Of a DNA stretch of 57,321 nt, positions 6,655 through 23,346 are shown in pieces. The notes beneath the pieces were generated by a model. It searched no databases. It saw only the letters and a list, made by a program, of their open reading frames with translations, and was not told the DNA's origin. Position 1 is the stretch's first letter. Every line of letters begins with the position of its first letter. This DNA comes from Thermoplasmata archaeon (GTDB taxonomy: Archaea > Thermoplasmatota > SW-10-69-26 > JACQPN01 > JAJPHT01). The DNA lies in the NCBI GenBank assembly GCA_034667685.1, contig JAXDQU010000078.1, positions 1 to 57,321 on the forward strand. Reading direction: 5' to 3'. Made by a program: the position numbers and the translations under genes.

Positions 6655-6659
6655 TCAGA

Positions 6660-6809: not shown

Positions 6810-6815
6810 AGTGAG

Positions 6816-7151
6816 TCATCTCCGTTCGATCGTGGTGTCGCGTTGCTTGGGGGTGACCCGCGCCAGGAGCTGGCGGAGGGTCTCGTCGTCGATGCGGCGC
6901 TGGACGCGGCCTTGCTGGTAGAGCATGACGAGCTGCTGCTCGAGGCTCTCGGCGATCTCCGGGCGCGCCATGCGGACGCGCGTGAGCCGCTCGCGGGCCT
7001 CCGGCTCGAGGATGGCGCGCAGGATCACGTCCCGCTGCTGCGCCTGCTCCGCGCGGGCGGCCTGGGCCTGCTGCTCGCCGTGGGCCTGCTGCTGAAGCTC
7101 GGCGAGCTTCCGGCGGCGGAGTTCTTCGAGCTGGTCGTCGTCCGTGGCCAT
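6816..7151 (-). CDS. PDCD5/TFAR19-family DNA-binding protein
   Basis: LEELRRRKLAELQ...ILEPEARERL..VRMARPE...I.RR; canonical neighbour of rps19e. Confidence 0.93.
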   Translation of the reverse strand: MATDDDQLEELRRRKLAELQQQAHGEQQAQAARAEQAQQRDVILRAILEPEARERLTRVRMARPEIAESLEQQLVMLYQQGRVQRRIDDETLRQLLARVTPKQRDTTIERR

Positions 7152-7161
7152 GTGATATCAC

Positions 7162-7614: not shown

Positions 7615-7722
7615 GGATCGGGACTCCTTTCTCGTCCGCCTCGTCCTGACGTGATCCCGGAGGATCGGCGCAGGCCCGACGCCGCTTGCGCGGCATCCGT
7701 GGAGCCGACGGCTCCCGGGCGG
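7615..7722 (-). ncRNA. Putative structured 5' leader (candidate r-leader) of rps19e
   Basis: Minus-strand stems GCCC/GGGC, GGAGCC-gtc-GGCTCC, GATGCCGC-GCAA-GCGGCGTC and GATCC-TCCG-GGATC lie between a TATA box and the start codon. Confidence 0.55.
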
Positions 7723-7743
7723 GAATCGGCCAATGGAGCGCCC

Positions 7744-7751
7744 CTATATAA
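7744..7751 (-). promoter_or_regulatory. Archaeal TATA box of the rps19e operon
   Basis: TTATATAG on the minus strand in a very GC-rich context, ~25 nt before the structured leader. Confidence 0.7.
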
Positions 7752-7930
7752 GATTCGCTGCGGGGTGGCGCGCGAGCGCATTCGGCATCAGGCTCGCCCT
7801 CCTGGGCGCCTCCCTGCTGCGCGACCGGGCTCCTTCCTAGGCGCGTCGCCTGCCGGCCGCCGACTTATACGACGAATCGCCGCAGGACGTAGGGAAGCGC
7901 TGATGCGAGGGGGCGCCCCATCGAATCCCG

Positions 7931-8902
7931 ATGGCGAAGCCCCACGATCACGACCACGGTCATGATCACGGCCACGCGCACGACCACGCGGCCGACATGC
8001 GCGAGATGGCGCGCGCGAACCGCAAGCGCCTCCTCTTCGTCATGGTGAGCGGCCTCGTCGTCATGACGGCCGAGATCGTCGGCGGCCTCCTCGCCAACTC
8101 GCTCGTGCTGCTCGCGGACGCGGCGCACTACGCGACCGACGTGCTGGCGGTGGGCATCGCGTTCCTCGCGCTCACGCTGGCGATGCGCCCCGCGACGCTC
8201 CAGAAGAGCTTCGGCTACCGGCGCGCGGAGGTGCTCGCGGCGCTGCTCAACGCGGCGGCCCTGTGGGGGATCAGCGTCTTCTTCGTCTTCGAGGCGTGGA
8301 GGCGCCTCGAGGCCCCGCCGGAGGTGGGCGGCAAGGTCGTGCTCCTCGTGGGCGGCTTCTCGCTCGTGGCGAACGGCGCGCTCGCGCTCGTCCTCGCTCG
8401 CGGCAGCGGGCACAACCTCAACATGCGCGCGGCGTACCTCCACATCCTCAGCGACGTGCTGGGCAGCGCGGCGGCGCTCGTGGCGGGCGCGGCCGTCACC
8501 TTCTTCGGCTGGCGCCTCGCGGACCCCGTGCTGACGCTCTTCATCACGCTGCTGATCCTCGTCTTCACGTGGCGCCTGACGAAGGAGACGCTGAACATCC
8601 TGCTCCAGGGGACGCCCGACACGGTGGACATGACGGAGCTGGAGCATGCCATCCGCGACGTCGCCGCCGTCAAGGAAGTCCACGAGCTCCACCTCTGGAG
8701 CCTCACGACCGGCACGGAGGTGCTGAGCGTCCACGTCGTCCTCGACGCGCCGCCCCAGGGCGACGCGGTCACGCACGACATCCACGAGAAGCTGAAGGCG
8801 CGGTTCAACATCGACCACGTCACGGTCCAGGTCGAGAGCCCCGAGTGTCCGTGCACGAGCGCGCGCTGCCACCCGGGCTCCCCGACGGCGCGAAGCGCGT
8901 GA
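7931..8902 (+). CDS. Cation diffusion facilitator (CzcD/ZitB-like metal exporter)
   Basis: His-rich N-terminus, LLADAAH, SFGYRRAEVLAAL, NMRAAYLHILSD, VHELHLW, HVTVQVE. Confidence 0.93.
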   Translation: MAKPHDHDHGHDHGHAHDHAADMREMARANRKRLLFVMVSGLVVMTAEIVGGLLANSLVLLADAAHYATDVLAVGIAFLALTLAMRPATLQKSFGYRRAEVLAALLNAAALWGISVFFVFEAWRRLEAPPEVGGKVVLLVGGFSLVANGALALVLARGSGHNLNMRAAYLHILSDVLGSAAALVAGAAVTFFGWRLADPVLTLFITLLILVFTWRLTKETLNILLQGTPDTVDMTELEHAIRDVAAVKEVHELHLWSLTTGTEVLSVHVVLDAPPQGDAVTHDIHEKLKARFNIDHVTVQVESPECPCTSARCHPGSPTARSA

Positions 8903-8944
8903 GACGGCCGGCCCGATCAGGGCGCCGCGACGAGCGCGCAGCGC

Positions 8945-9328
8945 TCAGGCGCCCGGCCACGCCTCGCGCAGCGGATGGCCCGCGTCGAGCGTCGCCTCGC
9001 CCGAGGCGCCCACGCGGCGCGCGTGCGAGAGCCAGGCCGCGCCGTGCCCCTCGTCCTCGTCGAGGAACATCGCCGCGACGTGCGCGACCTCGTGGCGGAT
9101 CGCTTCGAGAAGAAGGTCGCCCGCGACGTGCTTCGAGAGGAGGAACGGCTCCAGCCGGCGCCAAGCGCCCGCGCCGCGCGTGCGGGTCATGGAGAAGACG
9201 TCCAGCGTGTCCACGAGGACGACGCCGGGGAAGGGCGGGAGCGCGCCCGCGTACACGACGCGGTTGAGCCGCTCGTACTCGGCCTGGAACGCGGCGATCT
9301 GCACGGGGGGCGTGGCGCGCTCCTCCAC
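8945..9328 (-). CDS. SprT-like zinc metallopeptidase domain protein
   Basis: LN..VY.G.LP, HEVAH (HExxH) and GHG..W motifs. Confidence 0.65.
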   Translation of the reverse strand: MEERATPPVQIAAFQAEYERLNRVVYAGALPPFPGVVLVDTLDVFSMTRTRGAGAWRRLEPFLLSKHVAGDLLLEAIRHEVAHVAAMFLDEDEGHGAAWLSHARRVGASGEATLDAGHPLREAWPGA

Positions 9329-9340
9329 GTCAACCTTCCT

Positions 9341-9772
9341 TCAGGGCTCCACGACGAGCAGGCCGCGCATGGTCGTGTGGATCTTGCAGAGGTAGGGCAG
9401 CGCGAAGCCGCCGTCGGGCAGCGCGACCGCGTTGTTGCAGGTCGCGTTGTGGGCGCGGCCGTCCAGGTCCGTGTAGCTTGCCACGAGGTGGCCGCCGCTG
9501 ATGGTCAGCGTCAGCACCGGCGAGGGCGAGCCGGGGGACTCGGGCAGCAGGAAGCAGGGCGAGTCGCCCAGGACGGCGTTGTCCGCCGTGGCGTGGCCGA
9601 TGTCGCTCGACGTGAAGACGACGGTCGAGCCGCTCGTGATCGTGGCGACCGGGAGGACGTAGCCCTCCGAGGTGGCGTTGATCGAGCAGGGGTCCGCGCA
9701 CGTGGGGGGCGCGGCGGTCGTGGCGAGCGGGAGCGCGAGGAGCGCGGCGAGGCAGAGGAGCGCGGTCTTCAT
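9341..9772 (-). CDS. Secreted cupredoxin-like protein
   Basis: Signal peptide; TVVF...GH and YLCKIHTTMRG (type-1 copper C-x2-H-x2-M loop). Confidence 0.75.
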   Translation of the reverse strand: MKTALLCLAALLALPLATTAAPPTCADPCSINATSEGYVLPVATITSGSTVVFTSSDIGHATADNAVLGDSPCFLLPESPGSPSPVLTLTISGGHLVASYTDLDGRAHNATCNNAVALPDGGFALPYLCKIHTTMRGLLVVEP

Positions 9773-9778
9773 GTGATA

Positions 9779-11743
9779 TCACCTGGGAAGGATGGCGGGA
9801 ACGTCGCCCGCGTTGATGTCCATGCCGGCGAGCCAGACCGCGTTGTCGCGGGAGGGCGGCGCGCCGGTGTACGTGTCGTGGCCCCCGAGATCGAGGAACG
9901 TGCCGATGGTGTCGCCTTCGAGACCCTCGCCGCCGCCCAGGAGCACGCCGCGGCCCGCGGTCCAGCGCGGATCGTTGGGCCCGTTGTTCGGGTGGGCCTG
10001 CATGAAGTGGCCGTCGTCGCCCGAGACGTCGACGAACACGCCTTCGCCCTCGGCGGGTCCGCCGAAGCCCTCGTTCATCGTGTAGACGGAGCGGGGCGAG
10101 CGCGTGTCGCCGAAGTACGTGTCGTTGCCGCCCAGCGTCACGAAGACGCCGAGGCCCGCGTACGAGCCCGTGCCGAAGGCGCAGTTGAGCAGCGGGATGA
10201 TGTACGGGTTCGTCGCGCTCGACACGGCCTCGAAGTTGTCGTTGCCGCCGTCGTCGACGAAGATGCCGGTGCCCGCGAACGCCGCGAAGCCGTAGGCGTA
10301 GAAGTCGGTCGTGGTGGCATTGTCCCAGGCGTGGTAGCCGTCGTTGCCCATGCCCGTGTCGTGGAAGACGCCCACGCCGCCAAAGAAGCCGGTGCCGGTG
10401 GGGTAGAGCCCCTGGAACGAGAAGCTGTTGAGGCCGTTGTCGAAGCCGTAGGCGAGGTATTGGTCGTCGCCGCCGCCGTCGGCGAGGATGCCCACGCCGC
10501 CCGCGTTGCCGAAGCCCTGCGCGAGGTCCCAGGTGCTATCACCCGAGGACGTGACGTCGGCCTCGTAGCGGTCGTTGCCGGCCGCGTCGAGCTGGATGCC
10601 CACCGCCGCGAGGCCGTAGCCCTGGGCGCCCGCGTCGATGTAGTACGAGGGGCCGCCCCAGAGCTGGCCGTGGTCGGCCGCCTGCGCGAAGCTGGCGAGG
10701 TACGAGTCGCTGCCCGCCGCGTCGACGAGCAGGCCGATGCCGCCCTCGCTCGCGGAGCCGTCGACGTCCGTGGGCCGGCCGCCGTAGGCATATGCGTCGT
10801 CGCCCGCCAAGTCCACGAGCACGCTCGCCACGAGGCCGTTGCAGTCGTGGATCAGGCTCGCGGGGTCGGGGCACGCGGAGCCGGCGGTGACGTGATACGT
10901 GTCGTCGCCCGCGGGATCCACGAGCAGCGCCGGGTCGCGCAGGACGCCGGTGCGCTCGTAGACGTCGTTGCCCGAGGAGCCGAGGATGACGAGGCCGTTG
11001 GGGTCGGCGAAGAGCGCGACGCGGGATTCCGGCCACGCCACACCCTGGACCGCCGCGCGGAAGGCATTCTGCGCCGCCACGAGGTCGAGCGCGCGCGAGA
11101 GCGTCGCCTCGCGCTGCGCGTCGGAGAGCGTGACGACCGTTTGCCCGCCCGAGGCCTTCTCGGCCACGAGGACCGCCTGCGCGAGGGGCGCCTGCGCGAC
11201 GTACGCGTCCGCCACCGCGTGCACGAGGTCCGCGAAGGGCTGGCGCACGTCGTCAGGCAGAGCCGCGGCCTGCGACTCGACGCGGGCCATCTGGCCTGCG
11301 TCGAGCGGGAAGCCCGCGGCCGCGTCGAGGCGCGCCACGTCCGTCACGAGGTCGCCGCGCGCGGCGGCCGCGCCGGGCTGGAGCGCGAGCAGGCGCGAGG
11401 CGGTGCCCAGCTGGGCCCACTGCGAGACGGTGCGACCGTCGCGCACCTCAGCGCCGATCGCCTTCTGCGCGACCTCCAAGGGCGAGAGCCCCTGCATGTC
11501 GAGGCGCTGCGGGTGACCCACGCCGTGGTCCGCCATGAAGTGCTGCACGCGCGCCGCGAAGCGCGGATCCTGGAGGCCCTCGTAGTTCAGCTGGCCCAGC
11601 GTCTTCCCCTGCGTCGGGTTGGGCGCGAGAACGGGCACGTGCGCGGTGAGCGCGGCGGCGAGCCCTGCCGTGCAAACGAGAGCGGCAAGGACGAGAGCGG
11701 TGGGACGGAACGTGGGACCAGCCTCCGTCCGCCCCAAGGCCAA
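9779..11743 (-). CDS. Secreted protein with ~11 GxGhhhDxxGxDxY repeats
   Basis: Hydrophobic N-terminus; repeats such as LLVDPAGDDTY, GIGLLVDAAGSDSY, GVGILADGGGDDQY, TIGTFLDLGGHDTY. Start codon uncertain. Confidence 0.8.
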   Translation of the reverse strand: MALGRTEAGPTFRPTALVLAALVCTAGLAAALTAHVPVLAPNPTQGKTLGQLNYEGLQDPRFAARVQHFMADHGVGHPQRLDMQGLSPLEVAQKAIGAEVRDGRTVSQWAQLGTASRLLALQPGAAAARGDLVTDVARLDAAAGFPLDAGQMARVESQAAALPDDVRQPFADLVHAVADAYVAQAPLAQAVLVAEKASGGQTVVTLSDAQREATLSRALDLVAAQNAFRAAVQGVAWPESRVALFADPNGLVILGSSGNDVYERTGVLRDPALLVDPAGDDTYHVTAGSACPDPASLIHDCNGLVASVLVDLAGDDAYAYGGRPTDVDGSASEGGIGLLVDAAGSDSYLASFAQAADHGQLWGGPSYYIDAGAQGYGLAAVGIQLDAAGNDRYEADVTSSGDSTWDLAQGFGNAGGVGILADGGGDDQYLAYGFDNGLNSFSFQGLYPTGTGFFGGVGVFHDTGMGNDGYHAWDNATTTDFYAYGFAAFAGTGIFVDDGGNDNFEAVSSATNPYIIPLLNCAFGTGSYAGLGVFVTLGGNDTYFGDTRSPRSVYTMNEGFGGPAEGEGVFVDVSGDDGHFMQAHPNNGPNDPRWTAGRGVLLGGGEGLEGDTIGTFLDLGGHDTYTGAPPSRDNAVWLAGMDINAGDVPAILPR

Positions 11744-11793
11744 GGGGGGCCAAGAGGCTGTCGCTAGCCAAGATCGAATAGGAAATAGGATCT

Positions 11794-12096
11794 CTAGAAG
11801 TCCTGGGGTCCCCGCTTGTGACGCGGAGGCCGATAGAACAGCGCCGTGTGCCCGCGCACCTCGACGAGCGTCACGCGCGCCGCCTGCGCGAGGCCCTGCG
11901 CGAGCGCCTTCGCGTCCGCGTCCTCGCGCGCCGAGGCCAGGATCTTGACCTTCACGAGCGGATCGCGCTCCAGACGCGCCTGAAGCTCCTTCACGACGCC
12001 CTCGCTCACGCCATCCTTGCCCACCTGGAAGGCGACGCCGAGCGTCTGCCCCGTGGCGCGCAGCGCGGCAAGATCATGGCTGGTCAGGTTGGCCAC
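11794..12096 (-). CDS. YhbY/CRM-domain RNA-binding protein
   Basis: QVGKDGVSE..VKEL...L....LVKVK...VEVRG.T.LFYR; canonical neighbour of rpp21. Confidence 0.9.
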   Translation of the reverse strand: MANLTSHDLAALRATGQTLGVAFQVGKDGVSEGVVKELQARLERDPLVKVKILASAREDADAKALAQGLAQAARVTLVEVRGHTALFYRPPRHKRGPQDF

Positions 12097-12418
12097 GAGG
12101 CGCCGATGCGGGCCCCGATGATAAGACCTTGCGCCGCGAAGCGCCGCACGCCAGGCACGTCGTCACGCGCCGCCCCCCGCGCAGCCGCACGCGCGACGAC
12201 ACGCCCGGCGCCAGGTAGGCCTTGCACGCCCGGCAGATGCGCGCCTCGATCGCCGTGCCCCGCAACTGGTAGCGCGTCTTCACGCGCCACGCGAGCTGCG
12301 CATACCGGTCCGCCCGATCCCGGCGCCCCGCCCCCAGCGCCTCCGCGGCAAGGTCCGCCAGACGCGCGACGCGATCCAACGCCACGCCGCGCTCCTCGCC
12401 CTTGTTCCGCCGCGCCAC
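12074..12418 (-). CDS. rnp4: Ribonuclease P protein component 4 (Rpp21)
   Basis: ADRYAQLA, ICRAC..YL.PG...RVRL and TCLACG..RR zinc ribbon; GTG start (MARRNK) inferred. Confidence 0.88.
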   Translation of the reverse strand: MARRNKGEERGVALDRVARLADLAAEALGAGRRDRADRYAQLAWRVKTRYQLRGTAIEARICRACKAYLAPGVSSRVRLRGGRRVTTCLACGASRRKVLSSGPASAPRGQPDQP

Positions 12419-12513
12419 GCGCGGACGAGGCGCCTCCCCGGCATGAGCCCTCCGCCCGAAGCTTTCATAGAGGGGGACTCTGGTGCGCGCGGCACCGGGC
12501 CGATTCTCGGCAT

Positions 12514-12536
12514 GCGGACGTAATGATACCATCGGC
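12514..12536 (+). repeat. attL: 8-bp core plus left inverted arm
   Basis: GCGGACGT AATGATACCATCGGC; the core is identical to the first 8 nt of the tRNA at 21861. Confidence 0.75.
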
Positions 12537-12914
12537 TGGACTCTCCCGAAACAATGGGCGGGGGAGGTCCGGAACCGGGTCTTGAGGGGGTTCCGATCTT
12601 GTGGAGCCCCGTGGCGGTTCTGGCGCGGGTCCTTACTGAATAGGAAGGAAACTCCACGCCTTGGAACCGCATTCCTGGGGCTCCTTCTGGATCGAGCACG
12701 CGCAGGGCGCGGCTCCGATCCTTCTGCGCTCCTATGTCAGGGAGAGGCAATCCGAGCGCGTACTCGGCAAGCGCGGCGCGCCCCCTGCGCACCGCTCGGG
12801 TTCTTCCGTGCGGTCGGCCTAGCGCGGACCTGACACGGCCAAGATGGCGCCGTGCCGGCGTTGGCTGGACATGAGGGGGGCTTCCCGATTTTCGAGGTGG
12901 AGAAGATCCCCCGT

Positions 12915-12942
12915 CATGAGGATCTCGACATGAGGATCTCGA
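12915..12942. repeat. Perfect 14-bp tandem duplication CATGAGGATCTCGA x2
   Basis: Read directly from the sequence, in the largely non-coding left arm of the element. Confidence 0.85.
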
Positions 12943-12997
12943 CCCGAGAACCCGACCCTGTGGTAGGCTTGACGTCCTCGGAGTGGATCGAGACTCG

Positions 12998-13183
12998 ATG
13001 CCTGTCTTGAGCGGTTGGCTCCTCCTGGGGGTCGTCGCGTTGCTGCTGCGCTGCGGGGCATGGCTGATCCGTGAGGCTCGCCCGGGGAGGGAGGCGCGTC
13101 GGAAGCTGCTATTGCTAGGCTCGATCGTGGTCCTGGCAGCGGTCGCGGTGGCGCTGTTCATGGTCGGGTTGACCTTGTTGTAG
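12998..13183 (+). CDS. Small two-TM membrane protein
   Basis: MPVLSGWLLLGVVALLL...RRKLLLLGSIVVLAAVAVALFMVGLTLL; two hydrophobic segments with a basic loop. Confidence 0.5.
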   Translation: MPVLSGWLLLGVVALLLRCGAWLIREARPGREARRKLLLLGSIVVLAAVAVALFMVGLTLL

Positions 13184-13731
13184 GCTGCCCACCCTATTCT
13201 TCTTAGACCCATTCTGCGGGACGGCCGCGTTCTTCCCAGGAGTTGGCGGGTGTTGACCTTCCGGCGGTGACCCTCGGGTTCCGAGGGCTCGACCCCTCGG
13301 CGGGAGCACGAGAGGATGCAAATCTCACCATCATACGGGGCTCCGGTGTGCGAGCCTGGCAGGTCCGGGCAGCGCTCGGCCGGATCGGCTGGAGGAGATA
13401 GGCATGGATCGGGGCGCGTTGGCGGCCAGGAAAAAATTCCGTACAGGCGGCATCCTCGCGGCCGTCGCTGTTTCGCGCGCCGGTGCGCGCGGCCAAGATG
13501 CCGGGGCCCCTGACACCTGGTACGTCCGGGCGGAACCCAGAGTCGACTTCCGGCACTTCTCCGGCATGTCCTGGGAAGCGGAACTTTCAAAAAGGACGTT
13601 GGCGCCAAGGCCCCTTGATTGGTGATCGGCTTGGAGGCCTCCTCTCGTGACGTCCGCGGTGAACCCTCGAATCCCGCGGACCACCGAAAGCGTCGAGTCG
13701 TTGGAGAGTCACGGCGGGTCAGGTGATACTC

Positions 13732-14523
13732 ATGGCGAACGTGATGGACCACAATGCCCGATTCCTGCTCTGCTTCCGACTGCACCTGGCAAGCTACGCG
13801 CTCCTCGGGGAGCGTCTGACGGTGAGCAAGGTTGCGCAGGTGGAGCGGTGCGACCGGCATATGGTGAAGGACGCGCTCGAATGGCTCGGCCGTACCGGAT
13901 GTGTCGAAGAATTGCAGGCGCGCAAAGGGCGGCTCTCGGATCGGGAGTACGTCGTCTCGACCGATTGCTTCCACTTGCGGCCTATGCGGGGCGACGATGG
14001 CGGGCTCTCGCCCGAGGTCGTGGCGGCGTCCGAGGAGATGGGGGAACCGGCGCGCGGGCGGTTCCTGGGCGAGATCGTGCCGGATCGGCTTGTGCATGGA
14101 AGCGCAGTGCGGGACAAGGTGCTCCAACGCATCTACGAGGGCGCGTCCTTGGAGGACCCGACGAGCCTCCAGAAGCCCGCGAGGCACGAGACGGAGCCCA
14201 TGAAGGCCGCCGTCTTGGCCGACCGCGCCAGCGGGCATCGGATGGACCATGCCTTCGTTCTGGGCGGCGAGCTCGTCATCTGGAATCGTGGCCTCTACGC
14301 GCGGGCCCACGGCTCCGGGATCGTGACGTTCGGCGACGTGGGGATCAAGACCCAACCGACGGGGGCGGACGTGATGCGGGCAATCCGCGAGATGCGGCGC
14401 CTCCCGCGCGACGTTCGCGCTGTGAGCATGCAGGAAATCCCCATCTCTCCCCAGGATCCGAACGATCCGCTCGTGCAAGCATTCGAAGCGGCGCGGCGCC
14501 GAAGGCAGGAGTGGTCCGCGTGA
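13732..14523 (+). CDS. Hypothetical protein with probable N-terminal winged-helix DNA-binding domain
   Basis: AGGTGAT SD before ATG; LTVSKVAQVERCDRHMVKDALEWLGRTGCVEE resembles a wHTH. Confidence 0.65.
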   Translation: MANVMDHNARFLLCFRLHLASYALLGERLTVSKVAQVERCDRHMVKDALEWLGRTGCVEELQARKGRLSDREYVVSTDCFHLRPMRGDDGGLSPEVVAASEEMGEPARGRFLGEIVPDRLVHGSAVRDKVLQRIYEGASLEDPTSLQKPARHETEPMKAAVLADRASGHRMDHAFVLGGELVIWNRGLYARAHGSGIVTFGDVGIKTQPTGADVMRAIREMRRLPRDVRAVSMQEIPISPQDPNDPLVQAFEAARRRRQEWSA

Positions 14524-14972
14524 TCGGCGCCGCGAAGCCGCGCCTGGCCCGACGCGCCCGCCGCCCACGACGCCGGAAGGGACGGCGCTGGCCCTTCGTT
14601 CTCCTCACGGTCGCCTACGCGGGCGCGCTCAAGGACGCGAAGCCGAGCCCGTACCACCACGTTTGGGACGAGGAGCCCGGCGCGCGCTCCTGGGCCGGTG
14701 AGCAATACCGTAGCGTCGAGGGCCTGGACTGGTCGGACGCCGAGTTCTGGATCGCCGTCTTGTTGGCGATGCCGTTCTCGATGCAGGCATACTTCTTCTC
14801 GCTGCGGACGAGTGCGCAGCGGGCAGCATGGTTCGCCGTGGCCCGCGCCGACCATTCGCAGGCTCCGGCGTTCCTCCAGGCACGGAGCCTCTACCTGAGC
14901 GAGCGGAGCAGGCAGGTGCGCTACGTTCGGCGCGTGCCCCCACCGCTTGCGGGGGTGAGCCTGGATGGCTGA
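14520..14972 (+). CDS. Hypothetical protein (150 aa, Arg-rich N-terminus)
   Basis: GTG overlaps the upstream TGA (GTGA) and its stop overlaps the next ATG; corresponds to the 3' part of track ORF 13647..14972. Confidence 0.55.
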   Translation: MIGAAKPRLARRARRPRRRKGRRWPFVLLTVAYAGALKDAKPSPYHHVWDEEPGARSWAGEQYRSVEGLDWSDAEFWIAVLLAMPFSMQAYFFSLRTSAQRAAWFAVARADHSQAPAFLQARSLYLSERSRQVRYVRRVPPPLAGVSLDG

Positions 14973-16185
14973 CGCCCTGGGAACGCCACCGGCCGCGCCG
15001 ATCCCGGTGCCCTCGCGGCAAACCCAGTTGGCCGCCCGGTTCAAGACGCTGCCCGACTTGGGCGCGGGGCTCCTGCCCGACTGGTGGGGGCAGAACCGGC
15101 AGCACTACGTCACGGCGTTGGGCCTGGCCTACGACGGCTCGTTTCGCCAAGAGCCAGGGGCAGATTGGGCCGTGCGGGTCCGCAAGAGTGCGGACGCGGC
15201 CGACTACTTCCTGAGCGCATGCCGCAGCGTGGGCCTGGAGATGGCACCCTTCCATTGGGATGCCCTGGCCGCGCGCATCCGACCCGACGACACGCGCAAG
15301 CAAGGCGATCACATTGCGCTCGTGCGCGCCCTGAACACCGACTACGGCGCGCGGTTCTCCGAGCACGTGCAGTACCGCCTCCTTACCGACGGGAACGTCC
15401 ACGTCGAGATCACGGGTCCCACCGGGCTTGGCAAGAGCAGCTGCGCGATTGCCCTGGCGGACTGGATCTGGCCCATTCGGCCCGGTGAACTGCTCCGCCA
15501 TGTGAACTTCGACATGGACGAGCTCACCGACAAGCTGCCCCGGCTGGATCGCGGCGAGAGCGTCATTCAGGATGAAGTCCTCGAACTGACGGGCGAGGGC
15601 GCGGCGACCGCACGCTCGAAGCTCAACAACGTGGAGGACACCATCAGGAAGCGCGGCGTGAACCTCATCACTTGTTCGCCGCGCGAGCACGACTTCGCCA
15701 CGATGCAGATCGAGTTGGAGGCCTTGGCGTGGAACCGGGTGGACAAGTGGACCTTGTTCCTCGCTCACGTCGCAGGCAAGCCCACGGGCCTCGTGCCGAT
15801 CCCGTGGTGTCGCGCCGAGCTGTGGAACGAATACGAGCCATTCAAGGCGGCGAACCTGGAGCGCAGCCTGAGCGGCGCGTTCCAGGATCGCAAGTGGCTC
15901 ACGCGGAAGGCCATGCGCTTCTTCGGTGACGAAAACCTCGTGGACTACCTCGACAGCATGCCCAAAGGCCGCCAGTTCACGCGCACCGACTTCGACCGCG
16001 CCATCGGCGCGTTCCGCGGCGACGCGATGGCGAGCGCGCAGCGGCAGAAGGTCGCGTCCATGATGTTCGAGATGGTCATGCCGTCGAGCGCGGGCTCGTG
16101 CTGCTCAAGGAGCACGAAGAAGGGAAGTGGACGCCGACGAAGAAGTGAGTCCTACCCGAACCGGCTCCGGTTTTTCGTGAGGTGA
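14965..16185 (+). CDS. P-loop NTPase of mobile-element type, probably frameshifted near the 3' end
   Basis: Walker A ITGPTGLGKS, Walker B SVIQDE, then IRKRGVNLITCSP; a more plausible C-terminus exists in the -1 frame, ending at 16148. Confidence 0.8.
   Translation: MADALGTPPAAPIPVPSRQTQLAARFKTLPDLGAGLLPDWWGQNRQHYVTALGLAYDGSFRQEPGADWAVRVRKSADAADYFLSACRSVGLEMAPFHWDALAARIRPDDTRKQGDHIALVRALNTDYGARFSEHVQYRLLTDGNVHVEITGPTGLGKSSCAIALADWIWPIRPGELLRHVNFDMDELTDKLPRLDRGESVIQDEVLELTGEGAATARSKLNNVEDTIRKRGVNLITCSPREHDFATMQIELEALAWNRVDKWTLFLAHVAGKPTGLVPIPWCRAELWNEYEPFKAANLERSLSGAFQDRKWLTRKAMRFFGDENLVDYLDSMPKGRQFTRTDFDRAIGAFRGDAMASAQRQKVASMMFEMVMPSSAGSCCSRSTKKGSGRRRRSESYPNRLRFFVR
16160..16175 (+). terminator. 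Short hairpin plus T-tract after the NTPase
   Basis: AACCGG-CT-CCGGTTTTTT. Confidence 0.4.
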
Positions 16186-16300
16186 GCCGACTCCGAGGGG
16201 CATGAGCGTAACAGTAAACTTCCAGTTGCAACAGAGGTACTGTAACGTGCCCCTGTCGAAGATATAAGGGCCAAGCGCCATCTGCCCCAGCCGACCGGAG

Positions 16301-17494
16301 GTGGGAACGCTGGTAGATCATTCGGCCGCAGACTCGATGTTGGGCTACTACCACCAAGCGCGTTACGCCCTGTATCTGGCCCTGCGCGCGGAAGATCCAA
16401 CCGCAACTATCGAGATTGAGACCGCGGACGACATCGTGTTCGACGCCGCGGGTGAGCCGCGGCAACTCCTGCAATCGAAGCACCACGCGAGCAAGGGCAG
16501 CATCGCAAACGCAAGCGTGGAGCTATGGAAAACGCTGAGAATCTGGGCCGAGCACGAGCGCAAGACCAAGGGAGCGGCCGATGTGCGATACGTCCTTGTG
16601 ACAACGGCCAAGGCGTCGGGCGGCTCGGCCGCGCAGTACCTTCGGCCTGGCCCTGCACGTAGCGTTGAGAAGGCGTGGGGGCTGCTCTCAGAGGTACCCG
16701 ACATCTCAACGCGCGAGGAGAATGAAACAGCATACACTGAGTGGAAGAAGCTCCGTCCAAAGGGACAGAAGCGACTCCTCGAGAAGGTCCACATACTCGA
16801 CGGATCACCAAACATCCTCCAGACGGACCAACTGCTCCGAGACCGCCTCGGCCTGCTCGCTGCTAGAGAGAAGGTCGAAGATTTCATGGCAGCAGTCGAA
16901 GGGCAGTGGCTCCGGGGAGTTATCCGGCGTCTGGCGGGACAGATGAAGGCGCCCCTAATCGTGGGCGAGATCCAGGACTACGCCCACGAAGTCTCGCTGC
17001 AATACCGGCGCGATGCTCTCACCATTGACTTCGACAAGGCTGTCCCGGCTGGCGTTGTGGAAGATCACGACGATCGACAATTCGTCGATCAACTCCGCTG
17101 GATCAATGCAACGCCCGATAGCATCCGGCGCAGCATTCAGGACTATTATCGAGCTTTCCAACAGCGCAGCCTCTGGGTCAGAAAACAAAGGATCCACCCT
17201 GACGAGATCGAGGAATACGACAACCAGCTGATCGATGAGTGGAGCCGTCGCGTCGACGTAGACCAACGCGGGCTCGGTAACAATCCGAACGAGGCAGCAT
17301 GTGTGACTGCGGGCTGGCAGACCTTCCAATGGGCTCACTCGGAGGCTGCCATACACATCCGGGACGATTGCACCGTTCCATACGTCTGTCGCGGGAGCTT
17401 CCATGTCCTCGCAGATGCTGATCCCCCTGACGTCGGCTGGCACCCCCACTATCTCGCGAAGGCACAAGCGCGCAAGAAGGGTGGGAAGCCATGA
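16301..17494 (+). CDS. lmuA: Lamassu/ABC-3C effector (LmuA-like) with Cap4-like PD-(D/E)xK nuclease and C-terminal ABC-3C domain
   Basis: HSA..S.LGY.HQ..YAL, IEIE..DD, LLQSKHH, LWKTL.IW, QRS.W, RGSFH.LAD....GWHP; TATA-like GATATAAG at 16261. Confidence 0.82.
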   Translation: MGTLVDHSAADSMLGYYHQARYALYLALRAEDPTATIEIETADDIVFDAAGEPRQLLQSKHHASKGSIANASVELWKTLRIWAEHERKTKGAADVRYVLVTTAKASGGSAAQYLRPGPARSVEKAWGLLSEVPDISTREENETAYTEWKKLRPKGQKRLLEKVHILDGSPNILQTDQLLRDRLGLLAAREKVEDFMAAVEGQWLRGVIRRLAGQMKAPLIVGEIQDYAHEVSLQYRRDALTIDFDKAVPAGVVEDHDDRQFVDQLRWINATPDSIRRSIQDYYRAFQQRSLWVRKQRIHPDEIEEYDNQLIDEWSRRVDVDQRGLGNNPNEAACVTAGWQTFQWAHSEAAIHIRDDCTVPYVCRGSFHVLADADPPDVGWHPHYLAKAQARKKGGKP

Positions 17495-17979
17495 CGCGCG
17501 TGCGTTCTCTCGCACCGGAAGTTGCGAACCTTATCAACCCGAGCTTCTGTGGCTACCTCTTGAGACGAGCGGCAGAAGGCTATGCAAAGGAACGAGGGAC
17601 TGGCATCCCGTTCGAGCTCACGTTCCTTGTGTTGCCCATTGTACTCCATGAGGAAACACGCCAAGCGCTACCGCCCAACATTCGCACGAAGATGCACCCG
17701 TGGCTCCAAGAGACGCCCGTTGCACGGCTCGGCTTCGCATCGCGCGCCCGCGCACTCTCGACCTTCACTCGAAACGGTCTGTTATTCGCGAGCACGCATG
17801 GCATTGCCCGAGTCGATCAGGACGGCCGTGTGTGGCCTACACCCTTCACACCGAAGAAGCCCCCAGTCAAGGCTGCTGAAGTCCGCGAGTGTCTCGACAC
17901 CGCCGAATTGGTTGGCCGCTGGCTGGCGCAGGCCGGCAATCCAGCCACAATCTATCTCATGTGGGGAATCCAACCGTGA
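17491..17979 (+). CDS. lmuC: Lamassu/ABC-3C middle component (LmuC-like)
   Basis: EVANL.NP.F, FLVLPIVLHEETR..LP, G.W.......IY...GI.P; ATGA/GTGA coupling to both neighbours. Confidence 0.8.
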   Translation: MTRVRSLAPEVANLINPSFCGYLLRRAAEGYAKERGTGIPFELTFLVLPIVLHEETRQALPPNIRTKMHPWLQETPVARLGFASRARALSTFTRNGLLFASTHGIARVDQDGRVWPTPFTPKKPPVKAAEVRECLDTAELVGRWLAQAGNPATIYLMWGIQP

Positions 17980-19880
17980 CATTCCAAATCCTCGATCTTG
18001 TAGTGTATGCCCGGAACAGCGACAAGATCAATCGTATCAAACTCAAGCCCGGGAAAGTCAACCTCATCTCCGGTCCCGCGAAGACGGGAAAGAGTCAGGT
18101 CATCAACGTGATTGAGTACTGCCTCGCACGTGGGGAGTGCCCGATTGCGGAGGGCGTGATCCTTGACCATGCAGCTTGGTTTGGGCTTCGAATTCAACTC
18201 ACTGACACGCAGGTGTTCCTCGCACGCCCCTCGCCAGAAGGCGCATCCACCTCGCTCATGTTTCTGGAAGCTGCTCACGAAGTTCGGATTCCAATGAAGA
18301 GCGAGCTCGTTGCGAATACGAACGCCGACGCAGTTGAGAAATATTTGACAAGATCCATCGGGATTACTCCGAACCTCCATGTTCCTCCCGAGGGACACAC
18401 TCGGCCTCCGATTGAAGCCAACGTCCGGCACGCGCTTTTCTTCACCTCACAGGCGCAGAACGAGATTGCCAACAAGGACATCCTGTTCCATCGCCAGTCG
18501 GAGCAGATGATGTTCAACACTATTCGCGACACCCTACCCTACTTCCTGGGGGCAGTCGAAGAAAACCAGCTCTCACTCCTGCACGAACTCCAGGAAGCGA
18601 AGCGTGAACTCAAGCTCGCGACGCGGGCGCTCGCTGAAGCGGATACACTGCAAGGCGAGGGTGTGAGCCGGGGTCATGGTCTGCTTGCAGAAGCGCGGCA
18701 GTACGGGATCATTCCCGAAGGGCCATCCCCTCCCACTGAAGGTGGAGTGCGCGCGCTCCTTGAGCCGGGTCTCCGTTGGAGGCCCGCAGATGTCGCAACA
18801 CTGTCCAATCCGCGTCTCACGGAGTATCAAGAGAGGCGTGAGTCACTCCGCCGGGACTATGCCGAGTGGTCTCGAAAAGCTAAGGAAATCGAGCTAATGG
18901 CTGCCGAGACTAGTGACTTTGCGAAGGAAGTCACTGAGCAGACGTTCCGCCTCGAAACAATCAACGTCTATCCAAGCCAAGCCGGAACTCAAACGCAGTG
19001 CCCGCTCTGCCTGCGAGCGACCGAAGCACCGCGGCATCAAGAGGAACAGATGCGGGCCTCAATCACCGCCCTAAAAGCAAACTTGAGCGCTGCTCAACGC
19101 GAGCGCCCTCGATTTGAGGAGTATGGTCAGAAGGTCCAAGGCGAAATCAGCAAGATTCGTCGCGAAGCGGGTCAGGTTGAGATGGCAATCGAGGCCATCG
19201 TTCGTGATGACGAACGCGCTAAGAACCTCAGGGACAGGAACGCGCAAGCAGCGCAAGTTGTTGGCAGGATCAGCTTTTACCTGGAGAATCCGGTAAAAGA
19301 AGAGAACGTAGACGAATTCAAGGCAGCAGCCGAATCGGCCCGCGCTCGCGTAGATGAGCTCGAAGAGCGACTGTCACGCGAGGCATCTCAAGATCGTCTC
19401 GCGTACATTCTCGACGAAGTTAGCCGAAGGATGACTCAACTCGCCATACGCCTCGGCCTTGAGCACAGCGAGAAGCCCGTGAGGCTCGACATCCCACGGC
19501 TTACGGTCCTCGTAGAGCGACAAGGACGGTTCACTCCGTTGTCGCGCATTGGCAGCGGTGAGAACCACGAGGGATACCATGTCGTCACGTACTTGGCGCT
19601 CCACGAATGGTTCACGACCCACAACCGGCCCGTTCCTCGATTCCTGTTCCTCGATCAGCCGACCCAGATCTACTACGGCGGAGTGCAACGTGACCGCGAG
19701 CGCGTGAAGGAACTCTTCAAGCTCTTTAGCGACACCTGTGAATCCCTCGAAGGGAAGTTCCAGATGATAATCACGGAGCATGCTGATTTCGCGGAGGACC
19801 CCGCGTTCAAGGGCCATGTGGCGGAGGATTGGTGGAAGGGAGGCGCATTGATCCCGCCTGAGTGGATTCCCGCGGAATGA
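17976..19880 (+). CDS. lmuB: Lamassu SMC-like ABC ATPase (LmuB-like, DUF3732 type)
   Basis: Walker A ISGPAKTGKS, coiled coils with CPLC zinc hook, signature IGSGEN, Walker B FLFLDQP, IITEHA. Confidence 0.88.
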   Translation: MTFQILDLVVYARNSDKINRIKLKPGKVNLISGPAKTGKSQVINVIEYCLARGECPIAEGVILDHAAWFGLRIQLTDTQVFLARPSPEGASTSLMFLEAAHEVRIPMKSELVANTNADAVEKYLTRSIGITPNLHVPPEGHTRPPIEANVRHALFFTSQAQNEIANKDILFHRQSEQMMFNTIRDTLPYFLGAVEENQLSLLHELQEAKRELKLATRALAEADTLQGEGVSRGHGLLAEARQYGIIPEGPSPPTEGGVRALLEPGLRWRPADVATLSNPRLTEYQERRESLRRDYAEWSRKAKEIELMAAETSDFAKEVTEQTFRLETINVYPSQAGTQTQCPLCLRATEAPRHQEEQMRASITALKANLSAAQRERPRFEEYGQKVQGEISKIRREAGQVEMAIEAIVRDDERAKNLRDRNAQAAQVVGRISFYLENPVKEENVDEFKAAAESARARVDELEERLSREASQDRLAYILDEVSRRMTQLAIRLGLEHSEKPVRLDIPRLTVLVERQGRFTPLSRIGSGENHEGYHVVTYLALHEWFTTHNRPVPRFLFLDQPTQIYYGGVQRDRERVKELFKLFSDTCESLEGKFQMIITEHADFAEDPAFKGHVAEDWWKGGALIPPEWIPAE

Positions 19881-20013
19881 TGTCTGTTGAGCACCTTACT
19901 AGTACTCGTGCTGCTTGCTCCCTTCAGGGTCGTCTCCAACAGGGCGATTCCGACCCGCGATTTGCATCCAGGTCCCTGACGGGCCGGTGCAGCTCATCGC
20001 GCAGAGGCTCGCA

Positions 20014-20700
20014 TCATTTCTTCGTTGCGCGAAGATAGACGTACACGCTTCGTGGATTGCGGCGACCCGGCGCTTCCAAGAGAAGAACCCACGGGCCACG
20101 ACCGCGGGGAGTCCACTTGACCGAGTATGCTCGTCGTCCATCGCCACCATAGTCCATGTTCGGATCCTCATCGTTTCGGAGTGCGACGTACTTGCGCTCG
20201 CTCAGGATCCAGAAATCAAAGTCGCCATCGCCATCGAGCTTCCCTGTAATTGTCGCGTCGGACGGAACGTCCAGGTGAAGGACGGTCATCGTTCCAGGGC
20301 GAACAGGGTGCGGGCCTTCATCGCAGACTGCTGTTTCGACGTGTGCGTCGGGTCGATCGTTCCCGCGGCGGCGCCCAGCATGGCGGTCGGGCTCTATCTC
20401 AACGGGGCCTGCCAGTTCCTGCTCGGCGGGGTTGGCCTCCATGAGTTCGATTCGCGGGGGCGGGGGCGGCGCAGGATAGTGGTGATGCTGCTCTCGAATG
20501 ATGGTCCCTCCGGGGGCGTTCATTAGGTCATGGCCAGCGTTCTGCACGGCCGCCTCAATTCGGTTCCCGCTTTCCCCCCGCCCCTTTGCGACAAGAATCG
20601 CGATGATCGCGACCACGACTCCCAGGGCTGTGGCGATAGACCCCACCATGACCCAATCAACCATCGCCGCGGCAGCCGCCCTTTGGGGCATAAGCGTCAT
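20014..20700 (-). CDS. Hypothetical membrane-anchored protein downstream of the integrase
   Basis: N-terminal TM (WVMVGSIATALGVVVAIIAILVA), Pro/His linker, beta-rich C-terminal domain. Start uncertain. Confidence 0.65.
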   Translation of the reverse strand: MTLMPQRAAAAAMVDWVMVGSIATALGVVVAIIAILVAKGRGESGNRIEAAVQNAGHDLMNAPGGTIIREQHHHYPAPPPPPRIELMEANPAEQELAGPVEIEPDRHAGRRRGNDRPDAHVETAVCDEGPHPVRPGTMTVLHLDVPSDATITGKLDGDGDFDFWILSERKYVALRNDEDPNMDYGGDGRRAYSVKWTPRGRGPWVLLLEAPGRRNPRSVYVYLRATKK

Positions 20701-20705
20701 GGGCA

Positions 20706-21836
20706 CTATATTCCGGTCCCGCCCGCGCGCAGTTGGCGGATTGTCTCCGCGACCGCTGTAGGCACCGCTTGCGCAACCGCCGCTGCCACCGCCGTCTGCA
20801 ACGCCTTCGTTGGGTCCTCCCGGATCATTGCCCCGACAGGATCAATCCGCGCGGCGGCCCGAATCTCGGCCTCCACGTCCACGGCGGCCAGGTGGACATA
20901 GGTGGAGCTCTCGCGCGAGCCGGGAGCCCACCCAAAATAGGCGTTGAGCTTGGGCTCGTTCCAGCCAGCCTTCGCGGCCCGCGTCGCCCGGGTGTGCCGG
21001 AAGATGTGGCACGTCACGATCCGGTCGAGCTTGCCGGCCTTGGAGTAGTCCCTCAGGATCTTGTTCACGGTCGTGGGCTCCAGCGGCGCGTCCGGCTCGT
21101 GGTTGCTCGGGAAGAGCGGCGCAGATGGGTCGCCCCTGGCCGGGTGGTGCTGGAGCCAGACGCGAAGCGCCGGCACGGACTCGCTGACGTAGATCGTCCG
21201 CGGCCCCGTCTTCAGGTGCGGCGCGTCGCGCGGCATCTCCAGGTGGGCGCCCTCCTGGTCGTCGAAGATGACGCTCCCGACCCGGAGGGCCAGGGCCTCG
21301 CTGATGCGGAAGCCGGAGTCCCAGAGAACCCAGAGGAGCGCCTGCCGCATCCAGCCGCGCTTCGTCAGGTTGCTCCCCCAGGCCTGGCCGAGCAGCGCCC
21401 GGAACTCGTCCTCGGTCAAGGGCCGCTTCCGGGGGCTCTTGGGCTTCTTGACGCGCAAGGCCTCCCGGTACGCCCTGGGGAGGTCGGCGTCGTGGACCCA
21501 GGTGTAGAGCGCCTTCAGGTAGACGGCGAAGCGGAAGGTGCTGGCGGGGCTGTGCGTGGCCCCGTAGATCGTCAGGGTCCGGGTCAGGTCCGAGGGCGTC
21601 AGCTCCCGGAAGGACCGGCCCGGATTGATGGCGTCGAGCTGGAGCAAGTAGGAGCCGACGTTCACCAGGCTGGAGAGCGTGTTCCCCTTGGCCCGCTGCT
21701 TCTCGAAGTACGCCCCGGCGATTTCGCGGTTCGGGCTGGGCAAGCGTTCAAGTACCTTTTCCACGAATGCGGCCGCGCGCCGGGTCCGGTAGTCCTTCCG
21801 GGGTTCCTTGCGCACCCCTTGATCGGAGATTTCCAT
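20706..21836 (-). CDS. Tyrosine recombinase/integrase
   Basis: Catalytic set DSGFRISEAL (R), LKTG (K), HIFRHTRAT (HxxR), FGW (W), STYVHL (Y). ATG 21836 is preferred over GTG 21857, which lies inside the att arm. Confidence 0.95.
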   Translation of the reverse strand: MEISDQGVRKEPRKDYRTRRAAAFVEKVLERLPSPNREIAGAYFEKQRAKGNTLSSLVNVGSYLLQLDAINPGRSFRELTPSDLTRTLTIYGATHSPASTFRFAVYLKALYTWVHDADLPRAYREALRVKKPKSPRKRPLTEDEFRALLGQAWGSNLTKRGWMRQALLWVLWDSGFRISEALALRVGSVIFDDQEGAHLEMPRDAPHLKTGPRTIYVSESVPALRVWLQHHPARGDPSAPLFPSNHEPDAPLEPTTVNKILRDYSKAGKLDRIVTCHIFRHTRATRAAKAGWNEPKLNAYFGWAPGSRESSTYVHLAAVDVEAEIRAAARIDPVGAMIREDPTKALQTAVAAAVAQAVPTAVAETIRQLRAGGTGI

Positions 21837-21860
21837 AATCGCCGAATGGGGTATCACTTA

Positions 21861-21947
21861 GCGGACGTCGCCTAGCCCGGTATGGCGCGGCACTGGAAAT
21901 GCCGTGTCCGAAAGGATCCGGGAGTTCGAATCTCCCCGTCCGCGCCA
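21861..21947 (+). tRNA. tRNA-Ser(GGA) with encoded CCA
   Basis: Acceptor GCGGACG/CGTCCGC, anticodon arm CGGCA-CTGGAAA-TGCCG, long variable arm, T-arm GGGAG-TTCGAAT-CTCCC, G discriminator + CCA. Confidence 0.97.
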
Positions 21948-21957
21948 ATCCCCCGAG

Positions 21958-22030
21958 CCCGGGCCCTCTTCCGCTTCCGAGCCTGCTTGCGCCCGCAGGG
22001 CTCGGAAGCGGAATCGAAAGCGGGCCCGGG
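21958..22030. repeat. Long GC-rich palindrome with 6-nt TTCCGn units after the tRNA
   Basis: CCCGGGCCC..TTCCGCTTCCGAGCC ... GGCTCGGAAGCGGAA..GGGCCCGGG. Confidence 0.75.
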
Positions 22031-22131
22031 TCTCCGATTCGCGGGCCGCATAAGAAAATGCACAGCAGGAATCGCCTGCCCGCAAGCCATGAATATTAAG
22101 GCCCTTGTCCCGCTGCCAAGCCGTGAGCGCG

Positions 22132-23337
22132 ATGTCCCATCGTTTCCTCTTCACCAGCGAGTCCGTGACCGAAGGCCACCCCGACAAGCTCTGCGACCAG
22201 ATCTCGGACGGCGTGCTCGACGCGATCTTCGCCAAGGACCCCAGCGCGCGCGTGGCGTGCGAGACGTTCGCGACGACCGGCCTCGTGCTCGTGGGCGGCG
22301 AGATCAGCACGCACGAGTACGTGGAGCTCCAGGACCTCGTGCGCAGCATCATCCGCGACATCGGCTACACGAAGGGCGCCTACGGCCTGGACGCGGACAC
22401 GTGCAGCGTGCTCAGCGCGATCCACGAGCAGAGCAAGGACATCGCGCAGGGCGTCGTCAAGAAGGAGGCCGCGGAGACCGGCGCCGGCGACCAGGGGCTC
22501 ATGTTCGGCTACGCCACGAAGGAGACGCCCGAGCTGATGCCGCTGGCGATCCAGCTCGCGCACCGCCTGGCGCGCCGCCTCGCGCAGGTCCGCAAGCAGC
22601 ACATCGTGCCGCACCTCCGGCCCGACGGCAAGACGCAGGTCACGATCGAGTGGCGCGACGGCAAGCCCGTGCACGCGCACGCCATCGTCGTCGCCGCGCA
22701 GCACGACCCCGAGATCAGCCAGGACGACCTGCGCCGCCGCATCATCGCCTACGTCATCGAGCCCGTGATCGAGGAGTACGTCAAGAGCGGCCACGTGCCC
22801 GCGGACTTCTTCGACACGAAGACCGAGCTCTACATCAACCACACCGGCAAGTTCGAGATCGGCGGGCCGCACGGCGACACGGGCCTCACCGGCCGCAAGA
22901 TCATCGTGGACACCTACGGCGGCGCGGCGCCCCACGGCGGCGGCGCGTTCAGCGGCAAGGACCCCACCAAGGTCGACCGCAGCGCGGCGTACGGCGCGCG
23001 CTGGGCGGCGAAGAACGTCGTCTCGGCCGGGCTCGCGGAGCGCTGCCAGATCCAGCTCGCGTACAGCATCGGCCACCACGCGCCGCTCTCCATCAACGTG
23101 CAGACGTTCGGCACGGGCGTCGAGAAGAAGGGGAGCCGCCTCACCGACGCGGACGTCGAGGGCTACATCAAGAAGGTCTTCGACTTCAGCCCGTACGGCC
23201 TGATCCGCGAGCTTCAGCTTCGCCGCCCCATCTACCGGCAGGTCGCCGCGTACGGCCACTTCGGCCGCGACGACCTCGACCTGCCCTGGGAGCGCACCGA
23301 CAAGGTCGAGGAACTTCGCCGCGTGGCGGGGCTGTAA
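22132..23337 (+). CDS. metK: S-adenosylmethionine synthetase, bacterial/eukaryotic type
   Basis: [46 protein letters not shown]. Confidence 0.97.
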
Positions 23338-23346
23338 GCTGATATC

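Follow-up and report, generated by a model that had tools for sequence, protein, structure and literature searches.

Three short, tightly coupled genes in the genome of a Thermoplasmata archaeon raise the question of what kind of mobile element they belong to, and whether that element still depends on a virus. The genes encode two proteins that we call p263 and p150 and a P-loop NTPase, and they lie at positions 13,732 to 16,185 of a 57,321-nucleotide (nt) stretch of DNA (GenBank assembly GCA_034667685.1, contig JAXDQU010000078.1, forward strand) that was analyzed at its full length and is referred to here as the window. A sequence-only reading of this DNA had proposed that the three genes, accompanied by an integrase and a cargo of Lamassu defense genes, form the minimal core of a compact, virus-satellite-like element. 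We consider it probable, with some reserve, that the island derives from an undescribed rolling-circle element of a pleomorphic-virus-like kind and is a defective form of it, now serving as a Lamassu-bearing defense island.

The limits of the island were set by comparison with related genomes. In a genome of the same genus (G009), the genes for YhbY and Rpp21 are followed after about 44 nt by the same tRNA-Ser that is present in the window, and the distance between Rpp21 and the tRNA is likewise at most about 80 nt in two further relatives. Because these genomes keep the pair close together, the window carries a 9.3-kb insertion between the start of the Rpp21 gene and the 5' end of the tRNA. 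The homology of the window to G009 ends near 12485 and picks up again at 21857, which gives the element an extent of about 12,490/12,522 to 21,860. A putative left attachment (att) core, GCGGACGT, lies where the 5' end of the tRNA is expected from the comparison with G009 and repeats the first 8 nt of the tRNA gene; furthermore, a TGATACC inside the left end is inverted with respect to a GGTATCA inside the right end. Inverted arms around an 8-bp core are as expected of a core-type tyrosine recombinase site, and we regard the att core as suggestive, since the same 8-mer occurs eight times on the plus strand of the window. No tRNA-derived direct repeat longer than 10-11 nt was found in the window or in the related elements C79, L038, L039 and L040, which are introduced below, and an Rfam scan matched the tRNA alone. 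The same neighborhood is rearranged in other relatives: in one (G012:C25; locus L022, 1150-5550), a 4.4-kb block of apparently metabolic genes separates YhbY and Rpp21 and the tRNA is inverted, and in another (G011:C204; L023) the Rpp21-tRNA pair is inverted. These rearrangements suggest a recombination hot spot at this tRNA.

Because the window has a GC content of 70%, many frames are open by chance, and gene frames were chosen by GC content at third codon positions (GC3). For the three core genes GC3 is 0.84-0.87, which is host-like. They are co-directional and coupled, with coordinates and junctions as the sequence-only reading had described them: the stop of p263 and the start of p150 share a GTGA at 14520-14523, and p150 and the NTPase gene overlap in ATGGCTGA at 14965-14972. 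The three NTPase motifs that it had pointed out, GPTGLGKSS, VIQDE and RKRGVNLITCSP, are present as well and are invariant or nearly so among relatives. None of the three proteins had a match in Pfam, PADLOC or NCBIfam, and the sole PHROG match among them was a weak one of the NTPase to phrog_5484 (E=0.004). We consider p263 a probable winged-helix DNA binder that is lineage-specific; its Atlas leads were HTH_36/MarR-type clusters with scores of 0.88-0.92, a range that yields leads only. It has one homologue, 57% identical, on a 20,710-nt public contig, and an NTPase homologue with 70% identity (P0004) likewise lies on a 20,710-nt contig. For p150 there are two homologues (63-69% identical, with 76 invariant columns in a three-sequence alignment of 153 columns), one of which is on a 4,318-nt public contig; another NTPase homologue likewise lies on a contig of 4,318 nt.

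The NTPase defines a wider family of elements. A word-indexed search of 5.8 billion proteins returned five homologues with 43-76% identity, and the archaeon's own genome holds four copies, one in the window and one each on contigs C79, C109 and C42, the C79 copy being 44% identical to that of the window. With the own genome counted, 4 of 21 genomes from its class and 11 of 401 genomes sampled across its phylum contain a member of the family, and a profile search reached 582 cluster representatives at E≤1e-3 and 57 at E≤1e-30. The comparison covers 16 loci, of which one is the window, three are those on C79, C109 and C42, and twelve come from seven other genomes. In 12 of these loci the NTPase gene has a HUH Rep-like gene at a distance of at most 4 kb, and in 10 the two genes are directly adjacent; no such gene was detected in the window, L046, L047 or L044, the last of which is a contig of 3.6 kb. 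An alignment of 11 Rep-like sequences contains the motifs hVxTxP, HPHxD and RYSxR together with four invariant cysteines, and P180, H181, Y256 and R259 are invariant, completing the motif set of HUH rolling-circle proteins. The Atlas neighbors were Rep_1 clusters (score 0.97, 27 of 30 hits, 207-211 of 256 features) and the structure neighbor was a model of an IS91 Y2 HUH transposase (template modeling score 0.62); there was no Pfam, NCBIfam or PHROG match. The three-motif layout is like that of Rep_1 proteins of the pC194/pUB110 type and of IS91 Y2, and the N-terminal cysteine cluster resembles the IS91 zinc domain. The gene does not belong to Rep-Arvir, a Rep_trans-like family that PMC13107129 describes for betapleolipoviruses. 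We read the Rep-like protein as a putative rolling-circle initiator.

Within the NTPase family itself, the C79 copy (L018 7880-9055) is unique among the 16 aligned proteins in having an alanine for the usual glycine before the Walker A lysine (GHTGMAKSS). Distant relatives (P0067-P0159) make up the C-terminal half of longer proteins (610-680 aa) that contain two P-loop domains, and one distant relative of 780 aa, P0135, also contains an intein splicing domain. The resemblance of the window NTPase to Zot/packaging-type NTPases that the earlier reading had suggested did not survive: no Zot (PF05707) match was found, and a fold search returned generic RadA/KaiC/RecA cores (best E=2.9e-3). Weak Zot matches occurred in 3 of 36 scanned distant relatives, at residues 138-210, which belong to the other ATPase domain and not to the NTPase-family stretch at 372-598.

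The relatives also carry genes of an envelope-like kind. Open reading frames (ORFs) that are 780-1,210 aa long, have hydrophobic termini and contain as many as 16 NxS/T sequons are present in C79, C109, C42, L036, L038, L039 and L040, and in relatives small membrane proteins come after these large ORFs and before the NTPase. Integrases of the same cluster as that of the window occur in seven loci, in five of them head-to-head with a tRNA. In the compact loci L039 and L040 the order is large membrane protein, small membrane proteins, small protein, NTPase, Rep-like protein, integrase and tRNA. The three larger elements of the own genome, on C79 (about 1-17,513), C109 (about 15,500-25,900) and C42 (about 42,800-57,000; loci L018, L019 and L020, respectively), combine a member of the NTPase family with a Rep-like gene and large glycoprotein-like, or spike-like, membrane proteins, and the C79 element has a related integrase, 40% identical to that of the window, head-to-head with a tRNA-Arg(TCT). 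These three elements have the look of proviruses or integrative plasmids that are complete, or nearly so, and whose family is undescribed.

Searches of sequence collections placed the family outside what has been described. Searching a phage collection with the NTPase, Rep-like and spike-like proteins and a plasmid collection with the NTPase and Rep-like proteins (tblastn) gave no match; a scan of public viral contigs and a first scan of metagenome contigs found no related locus; and a scan of public genome contigs found four distant relatives, none of them close. Profiles of the NTPase, the Rep-like protein and the spike-like protein gave nothing significant against PDB sequences. Judged by its sequences, which match nothing in Pfam, PHROGs (the weak phrog_5484 hit aside) or the phage and plasmid collections, the parent family is undescribed.

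Compared with this family, the NTPase of the window is incomplete. Its homology to the family stops at residue 371, at nt 16077, and because its last 35 codons are not homologous to the family, the gene is truncated at its 3' end. It is the only one of the 16 aligned NTPases without the conserved C-terminal block, and F393 and G398 (P0004 numbering) are kept in the other 15; the missing part is not encoded in any other frame. In the full-length homologue with 70% identity, as modeled by AlphaFold (mean predicted local distance difference test score, pLDDT, 82), the part that is lost comprises well-predicted helices with a pLDDT of 86-92. The truncated form is covered without differing letters by contigs of two soil sequencing runs from different studies, one of which is possibly the source of the window; because the contigs of the two runs agree, the truncated form is not an assembly artefact.

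The break in the NTPase gene coincides with the low-GC Lamassu cassette, GC content dropping there from 0.65-0.70 to 0.57-0.62. GC content is 0.57-0.62 across 16-20 kb compared to 0.65-0.73 around it, and GC3 is 0.64-0.69 in the Lmu genes compared to 0.84-0.90 in the backbone genes. The cargo is Lamassu, as the sequence-only reading had it: all three components lie in one operon and were recognized with high significance by PADLOC and, as an ABC-3C system, by Pfam (Table 1). The start of LmuB is uncertain, as its ORF opens at 17889 and the PADLOC alignment begins at residue 31 of the 663-aa ORF. LmuB relatives were present in 3 of the 401 genomes of the phylum and in none of four genomes of the same genus. 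The simplest reading of these data is that the cassette was horizontally acquired and took the place of the Rep gene along with the 3' end of the NTPase gene. The cassette itself is ordinary; its place, where a Rep gene would be, is the point of interest.

The organization of the parent family, as distinct from the stump in the window, resembles that of the Pleolipoviridae, hallmark genes of which are listed in PMC10919331. Both have a size of about 8-17 kb, integration at tRNAs by a tyrosine integrase, and a gene order in which a large spike-like membrane glycoprotein comes first, small membrane proteins next and a P-loop NTPase last; some Pleolipoviridae have a rolling-circle Rep, and relatives in the parent family have the Rep-like gene. 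The pleomorphic viruses and proviruses named for comparison were HRPV-1, SNJ2, AvPV1 and GacPV1, and by the annotation of HRPV-1 and GacPV1 the gene order of C79, L039 and L040 mirrors VP4, ORF5-7, VP8 and Rep of HRPV-1. According to PMC10919331, VP4-like proviruses have been reported in Methanomassiliicoccales, which is an order of the Thermoplasmatota.

Comparisons at the sequence level gave little. Aligned by hhalign with a profile of seven VP8 proteins, the NTPase profile reached a probability of 16.5% (E=0.0015) over 124 columns that cover the core from Walker A to just after Walker B only, and with a single VP8 the probability was 0.14%. The spike-like proteins had no sequence similarity to VP4 of HRPV-1 or GacPV1 or to PDB sequences. 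The Rep-like profile matched the HRPV-1 Rep with a probability of 0.3% and the GacPV1 Rep with E=0.0016 among 218 ORFs. The window's integrase was alone in matching pleomorphic-virus proteins: among its few viral matches were two thalassapleovirus-type integrases, with 32% identity over 42% of the length. Because these tests were negative or weak, the integrase aside, they do not establish membership in the Pleolipoviridae, and we go no further than to describe the parent family as organized like that family. The island in the window differs from the Pleolipoviridae in that it has no morphogenetic gene other than the truncated NTPase.

Indeed, no capsid, primase, Rep, relaxase, conjugation or helicase family was detected in the island with Pfam, PHROGs, PADLOC and NCBIfam (the smallest ORF, of 66 aa, was scanned with NCBIfam only), which agrees with the gene inventory of the sequence-only reading. 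Its proposal that the element is non-autonomous also gains support, since the relatives of the NTPase belong to larger elements with HUH Rep-like and envelope-like genes and the window has neither. Its notion of a minimal core holds only in part: fuller relatives carry Rep-like and envelope-like genes, and the NTPase is truncated. It had also allowed that the genes might be remnants of a known provirus or plasmid family with fuller members, and the relatives largely bear this out, except that the family is not a known one.

These results are consistent with the following history. A tyrosine integrase would have inserted the element at the 5' end of tRNA-Ser(GGA). The element would be a member of a parent family that most likely consists of temperate enveloped pleomorphic-type viruses or of integrative rolling-circle plasmids. 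The horizontally acquired, lower-GC Lamassu cassette would then have displaced the Rep gene, and with it the final ~50 codons of the NTPase gene, and the block of envelope genes is absent; we infer that these genes were lost, as opposed to never having been there, and that NTPase function was presumably lost with them. With the Rep gene and the envelope block gone, the element would be unable to replicate or form particles alone. In this history p263, p150 and the truncated NTPase would be a leftover backbone, still open and perhaps still expressed, and the present role of the island for the cell would be to carry Lamassu, i.e. to serve as a defense island.

A number of observations weigh against this history. 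The argument for a viral parent family is one of gene architecture alone. A search of the non-coding arms for Rep or envelope pseudogene remnants with 222 proteins of related elements gave noise (best E=0.003), and because no pseudogene fragments were detectable, gene loss is deduced from the relatives and not from direct traces. Neither p263 nor p150 has a counterpart in the 15 other NTPase loci, and across a few public contigs they are conserved at 57-69%, as is the NTPase at 70-76% in three. Because p263 and p150 are absent from relatives and conserved elsewhere, the sub-lineage of the window might normally have a different architecture that is not among the loci seen here. All three core genes are still open, and the integrase and the plausible att core are likewise undamaged, as would suit an element that is still functional; the catalytic residues of the integrase (R177, K209, H277, R280, W303 and Y313) are invariant across six aligned integrases. 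Finally, a 26-nt imperfect-hairpin motif of the window, TACAGGCGGCATCCTCGCGGCCGTCG, recurs on the left side of the C79 element (L018 110-135) with 96% identity, compared to only about 66-68% for the coding DNA of these elements. The motif hints at a conserved cis site and at an interplay with a potential helper, and is the best argument for a helper relationship.

In its general form, such a relationship would make the island a functional helper-dependent satellite or hitchhiker that is excised by its own integrase and replicated and enveloped in trans by, for example, the C79 element, with Lamassu benefiting the host. We regard this as unlikely, though as the more probable of the two rival readings. 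Besides the complete set of integrase residues and an 8-bp repeat at the tRNA 5' end that, with its inverted arms, looks core-type, it draws on the three open genes with their host-like GC3 and their conservation in other contigs, and on the presence of three larger relatives in the same genome, one of which, C79, has an NTPase with 44% and an integrase with 40% identity to those of the window. The 26-nt motif is common only to the window and C79: it occurs twice in the 3.48-Mb genome at up to four mismatches and not at all in 20 other genomes of the class. It may act in cis, or it may have been left behind when the co-resident elements recombined, and the possibility of recombination blunts it as evidence for a helper. 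With a folding z of -0.8, the region of the motif is without special stability. Two matches to a 22-nt motif in public metagenome contigs came from unrelated contigs with 52% GC and were taken as chance hairpin look-alikes.

Comparison with known satellites cuts both ways. Bacterial phage satellites such as phage-inducible chromosomal islands (PICI) and P4-like elements recur as families that share a conserved, reduced layout, have replication modules of their own and carry genes that hijack the helper. The island resembles these in its integrase at a tRNA, its lack of structural genes and its anti-virus cargo; no recurrent layout, replication module or helper-hijacking genes were observed for it. 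Among the archaea, pSSVx and the SRCEs are described in bioRxiv 10.1101/2025.02.15.638363 as satellites of spindle-shaped viruses that retain a signature viral ATPase, are missing most structural genes and need a co-infecting virus, so that satellites that keep an ATPase have a precedent. The same source attributes to them a plasmid-type Rep or a primase of their own and free high-copy circles. The island is like them in being small, without structural genes and in keeping its NTPase, and differs in that it has no recognizable replication gene, is seen only integrated and has a truncated ATPase. The island lacks structural genes and keeps an integrase and att sites, the att part being weak, as a satellite would, and no replication module or origin of its own was found in it, whereas the known archaeal satellites in that source keep a replication protein.

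Two further results speak against a satellite. The NTPase, which is the sole gene common to the island and its putative helpers, is truncated exactly at the cargo junction. Moreover, no second copy of the reduced layout was present in the 21 genomes of the class or was recovered with p263 and p150 as queries; neither protein was found in the 20 other genomes of the class, and their only homologues are those on public contigs. The cut at the cargo junction, the lack of a replication module or origin and the lack of a second reduced layout together weaken the case for dependence on a helper virus. As for excision, the contigs of the two soil runs contain 9 joints and 5 joints with letters between, all short-sided (21-30 letters), and no listed joint connects 12.5 kb with 21.86 kb; because contigs cannot reveal rare excised or circular forms, these joints say nothing on excision either way.

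A more specific form of this idea, to which we give somewhat less credence still, is that the island is a true satellite of undescribed enveloped, rolling-circle, tRNA-integrating viruses of soil Thermoplasmatota, having traded its Rep gene for Lamassu and being excised by its own integrase, then replicated and packaged in trans by the co-resident C79-type provirus through the 26-nt hairpin site. If true, it would be the first defense-carrying satellite of a pleomorphic-type archaeal virus; among the papers that a literature search listed, no title or beginning of an abstract describes a satellite of a pleomorphic virus or a Lamassu-carrying archaeal provirus. The least probable alternative, an autonomous integrative plasmid-like element in which p263 acts as an initiator on repeats of the left arm and a HUH Rep was never needed, could appeal to the Atlas neighbors of p263 (HTH_36 and a RepL-type cluster linked to plasmid and phage initiators, scores 0.88-0.92), to the 14-nt tandem repeat and the hairpin motif upstream of p263 and to the restriction of p263 and p150 to this sub-lineage, but we consider it improbable given that the Atlas hits are leads only, with 158 shared features compared to the 170 typical of true family members, that p263 has no Pfam match (including Rep-Arvir, PF25227, named in PMC13107129, if it is in the library copy), and that an NTPase cut off where the cargo begins would still point to a replacement of downstream sequence.

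The remaining features of the island are summarized in Table 1. In the left arm, which is non-coding, a 14-nt unit, CATGAGGATCTCGA, is present twice in tandem and is possibly a protein-binding repeat. Of the two membrane-protein genes reported earlier, the 66-aa ORF has two hydrophobic segments, but the 230-aa ORF is rivaled by a plus-strand ORF at 19915-20526 with a better GC3 pattern. The 66-aa ORF had no homologue in the own genome or in related elements and no match in NCBIfam; the 230-aa ORF, the start codon of which (ending at 20706) overlaps the stop codon of the integrase (20706-20708), had no match in Pfam, PHROGs, PADLOC or NCBIfam. A scan for bacterial-type promoters and terminators found nothing above shuffled sequences. 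Beyond the island, the gene after the tRNA-Ser (22105-23337) encodes an S-adenosylmethionine synthetase, the N-terminus of which looks bacterial/eukaryotic in type as opposed to archaeal. GC content dips a second time (0.60-0.63) at a 390-aa ORF of unknown function (43569-44741) that lies directly 3' of a V/A-type ATPase subunit A-like gene (41699-43513, identified from its translation alone).

Table 1. Features of the tRNA-Ser island, in window coordinates.
Feature	Coordinates	Strand	Remarks
Putative attL core, GCGGACGT	12514..12521	+	identical to first 8 nt of tRNA-Ser
14-nt unit CATGAGGATCTCGA, two tandem copies	12914..12941	+	read from sequence; non-coding left arm, upstream of 66-aa ORF and p263
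66-aa ORF, small membrane protein	12983..13183	+	GC3 0.83; two hydrophobic segments, the first from aa 4 and the second from aa 38
26-nt imperfect-hairpin motif TACAGGCGGCATCCTCGCGGCCGTCG	13442..13467	+	25/26 identical to left side of C79 element
p263 (263 aa)	13732..14523	+	ORF opens at GTG 13723; probable N-terminal winged-helix DNA-binding domain
p150 (150 aa)	14520..14972	+	small basic protein with one moderately hydrophobic stretch/helix; function unknown
P-loop NTPase (406-aa ORF)	14965..16185	+	family-defining gene; homologous to relatives up to nt 16077
LmuA, ABC-3C effector with CTD7	16301..17494	+	PF20283 8.5e-40; PADLOC 1.7e-54; GC3 0.69
LmuC, ABC-3C middle component MC3	17491..17979	+	PF20131 9.7e-46; PADLOC 3.5e-13
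LmuB, SMC-like ATPase, DUF3732	17979..19880	+	PF12532 3e-42; PADLOC 1.4e-122
230-aa ORF, N-terminal hydrophobic anchor	20014..20706	-	gene call uncertain
Tyrosine integrase	20706..21857	-	PF00589 6.2e-16; phrog_1 3.6e-31; ATG at 21836, ORF opens at GTG 21857
tRNA-Ser(GGA)	21861..21947	+	head-to-head with integrase; first 8 nt are the putative attR core

As an object, a defective integrated element that carries a defense cassette is ordinary. Its NTPase, however, leads to a family of elements in uncultivated archaea that combines a novel NTPase, a HUH Rep, a tRNA-facing integrase and glycoprotein-like membrane proteins, and if these elements are pleomorphic-type viruses, the family extends that type of virus into soil Thermoplasmatota. 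The window is furthermore a clean example of a Lamassu defense system taking the place of a mobile element's replication gene, and this exchange of Rep for Lamassu is a plausible route from an archaeal provirus to a fixed defense island or, less likely, to a satellite.

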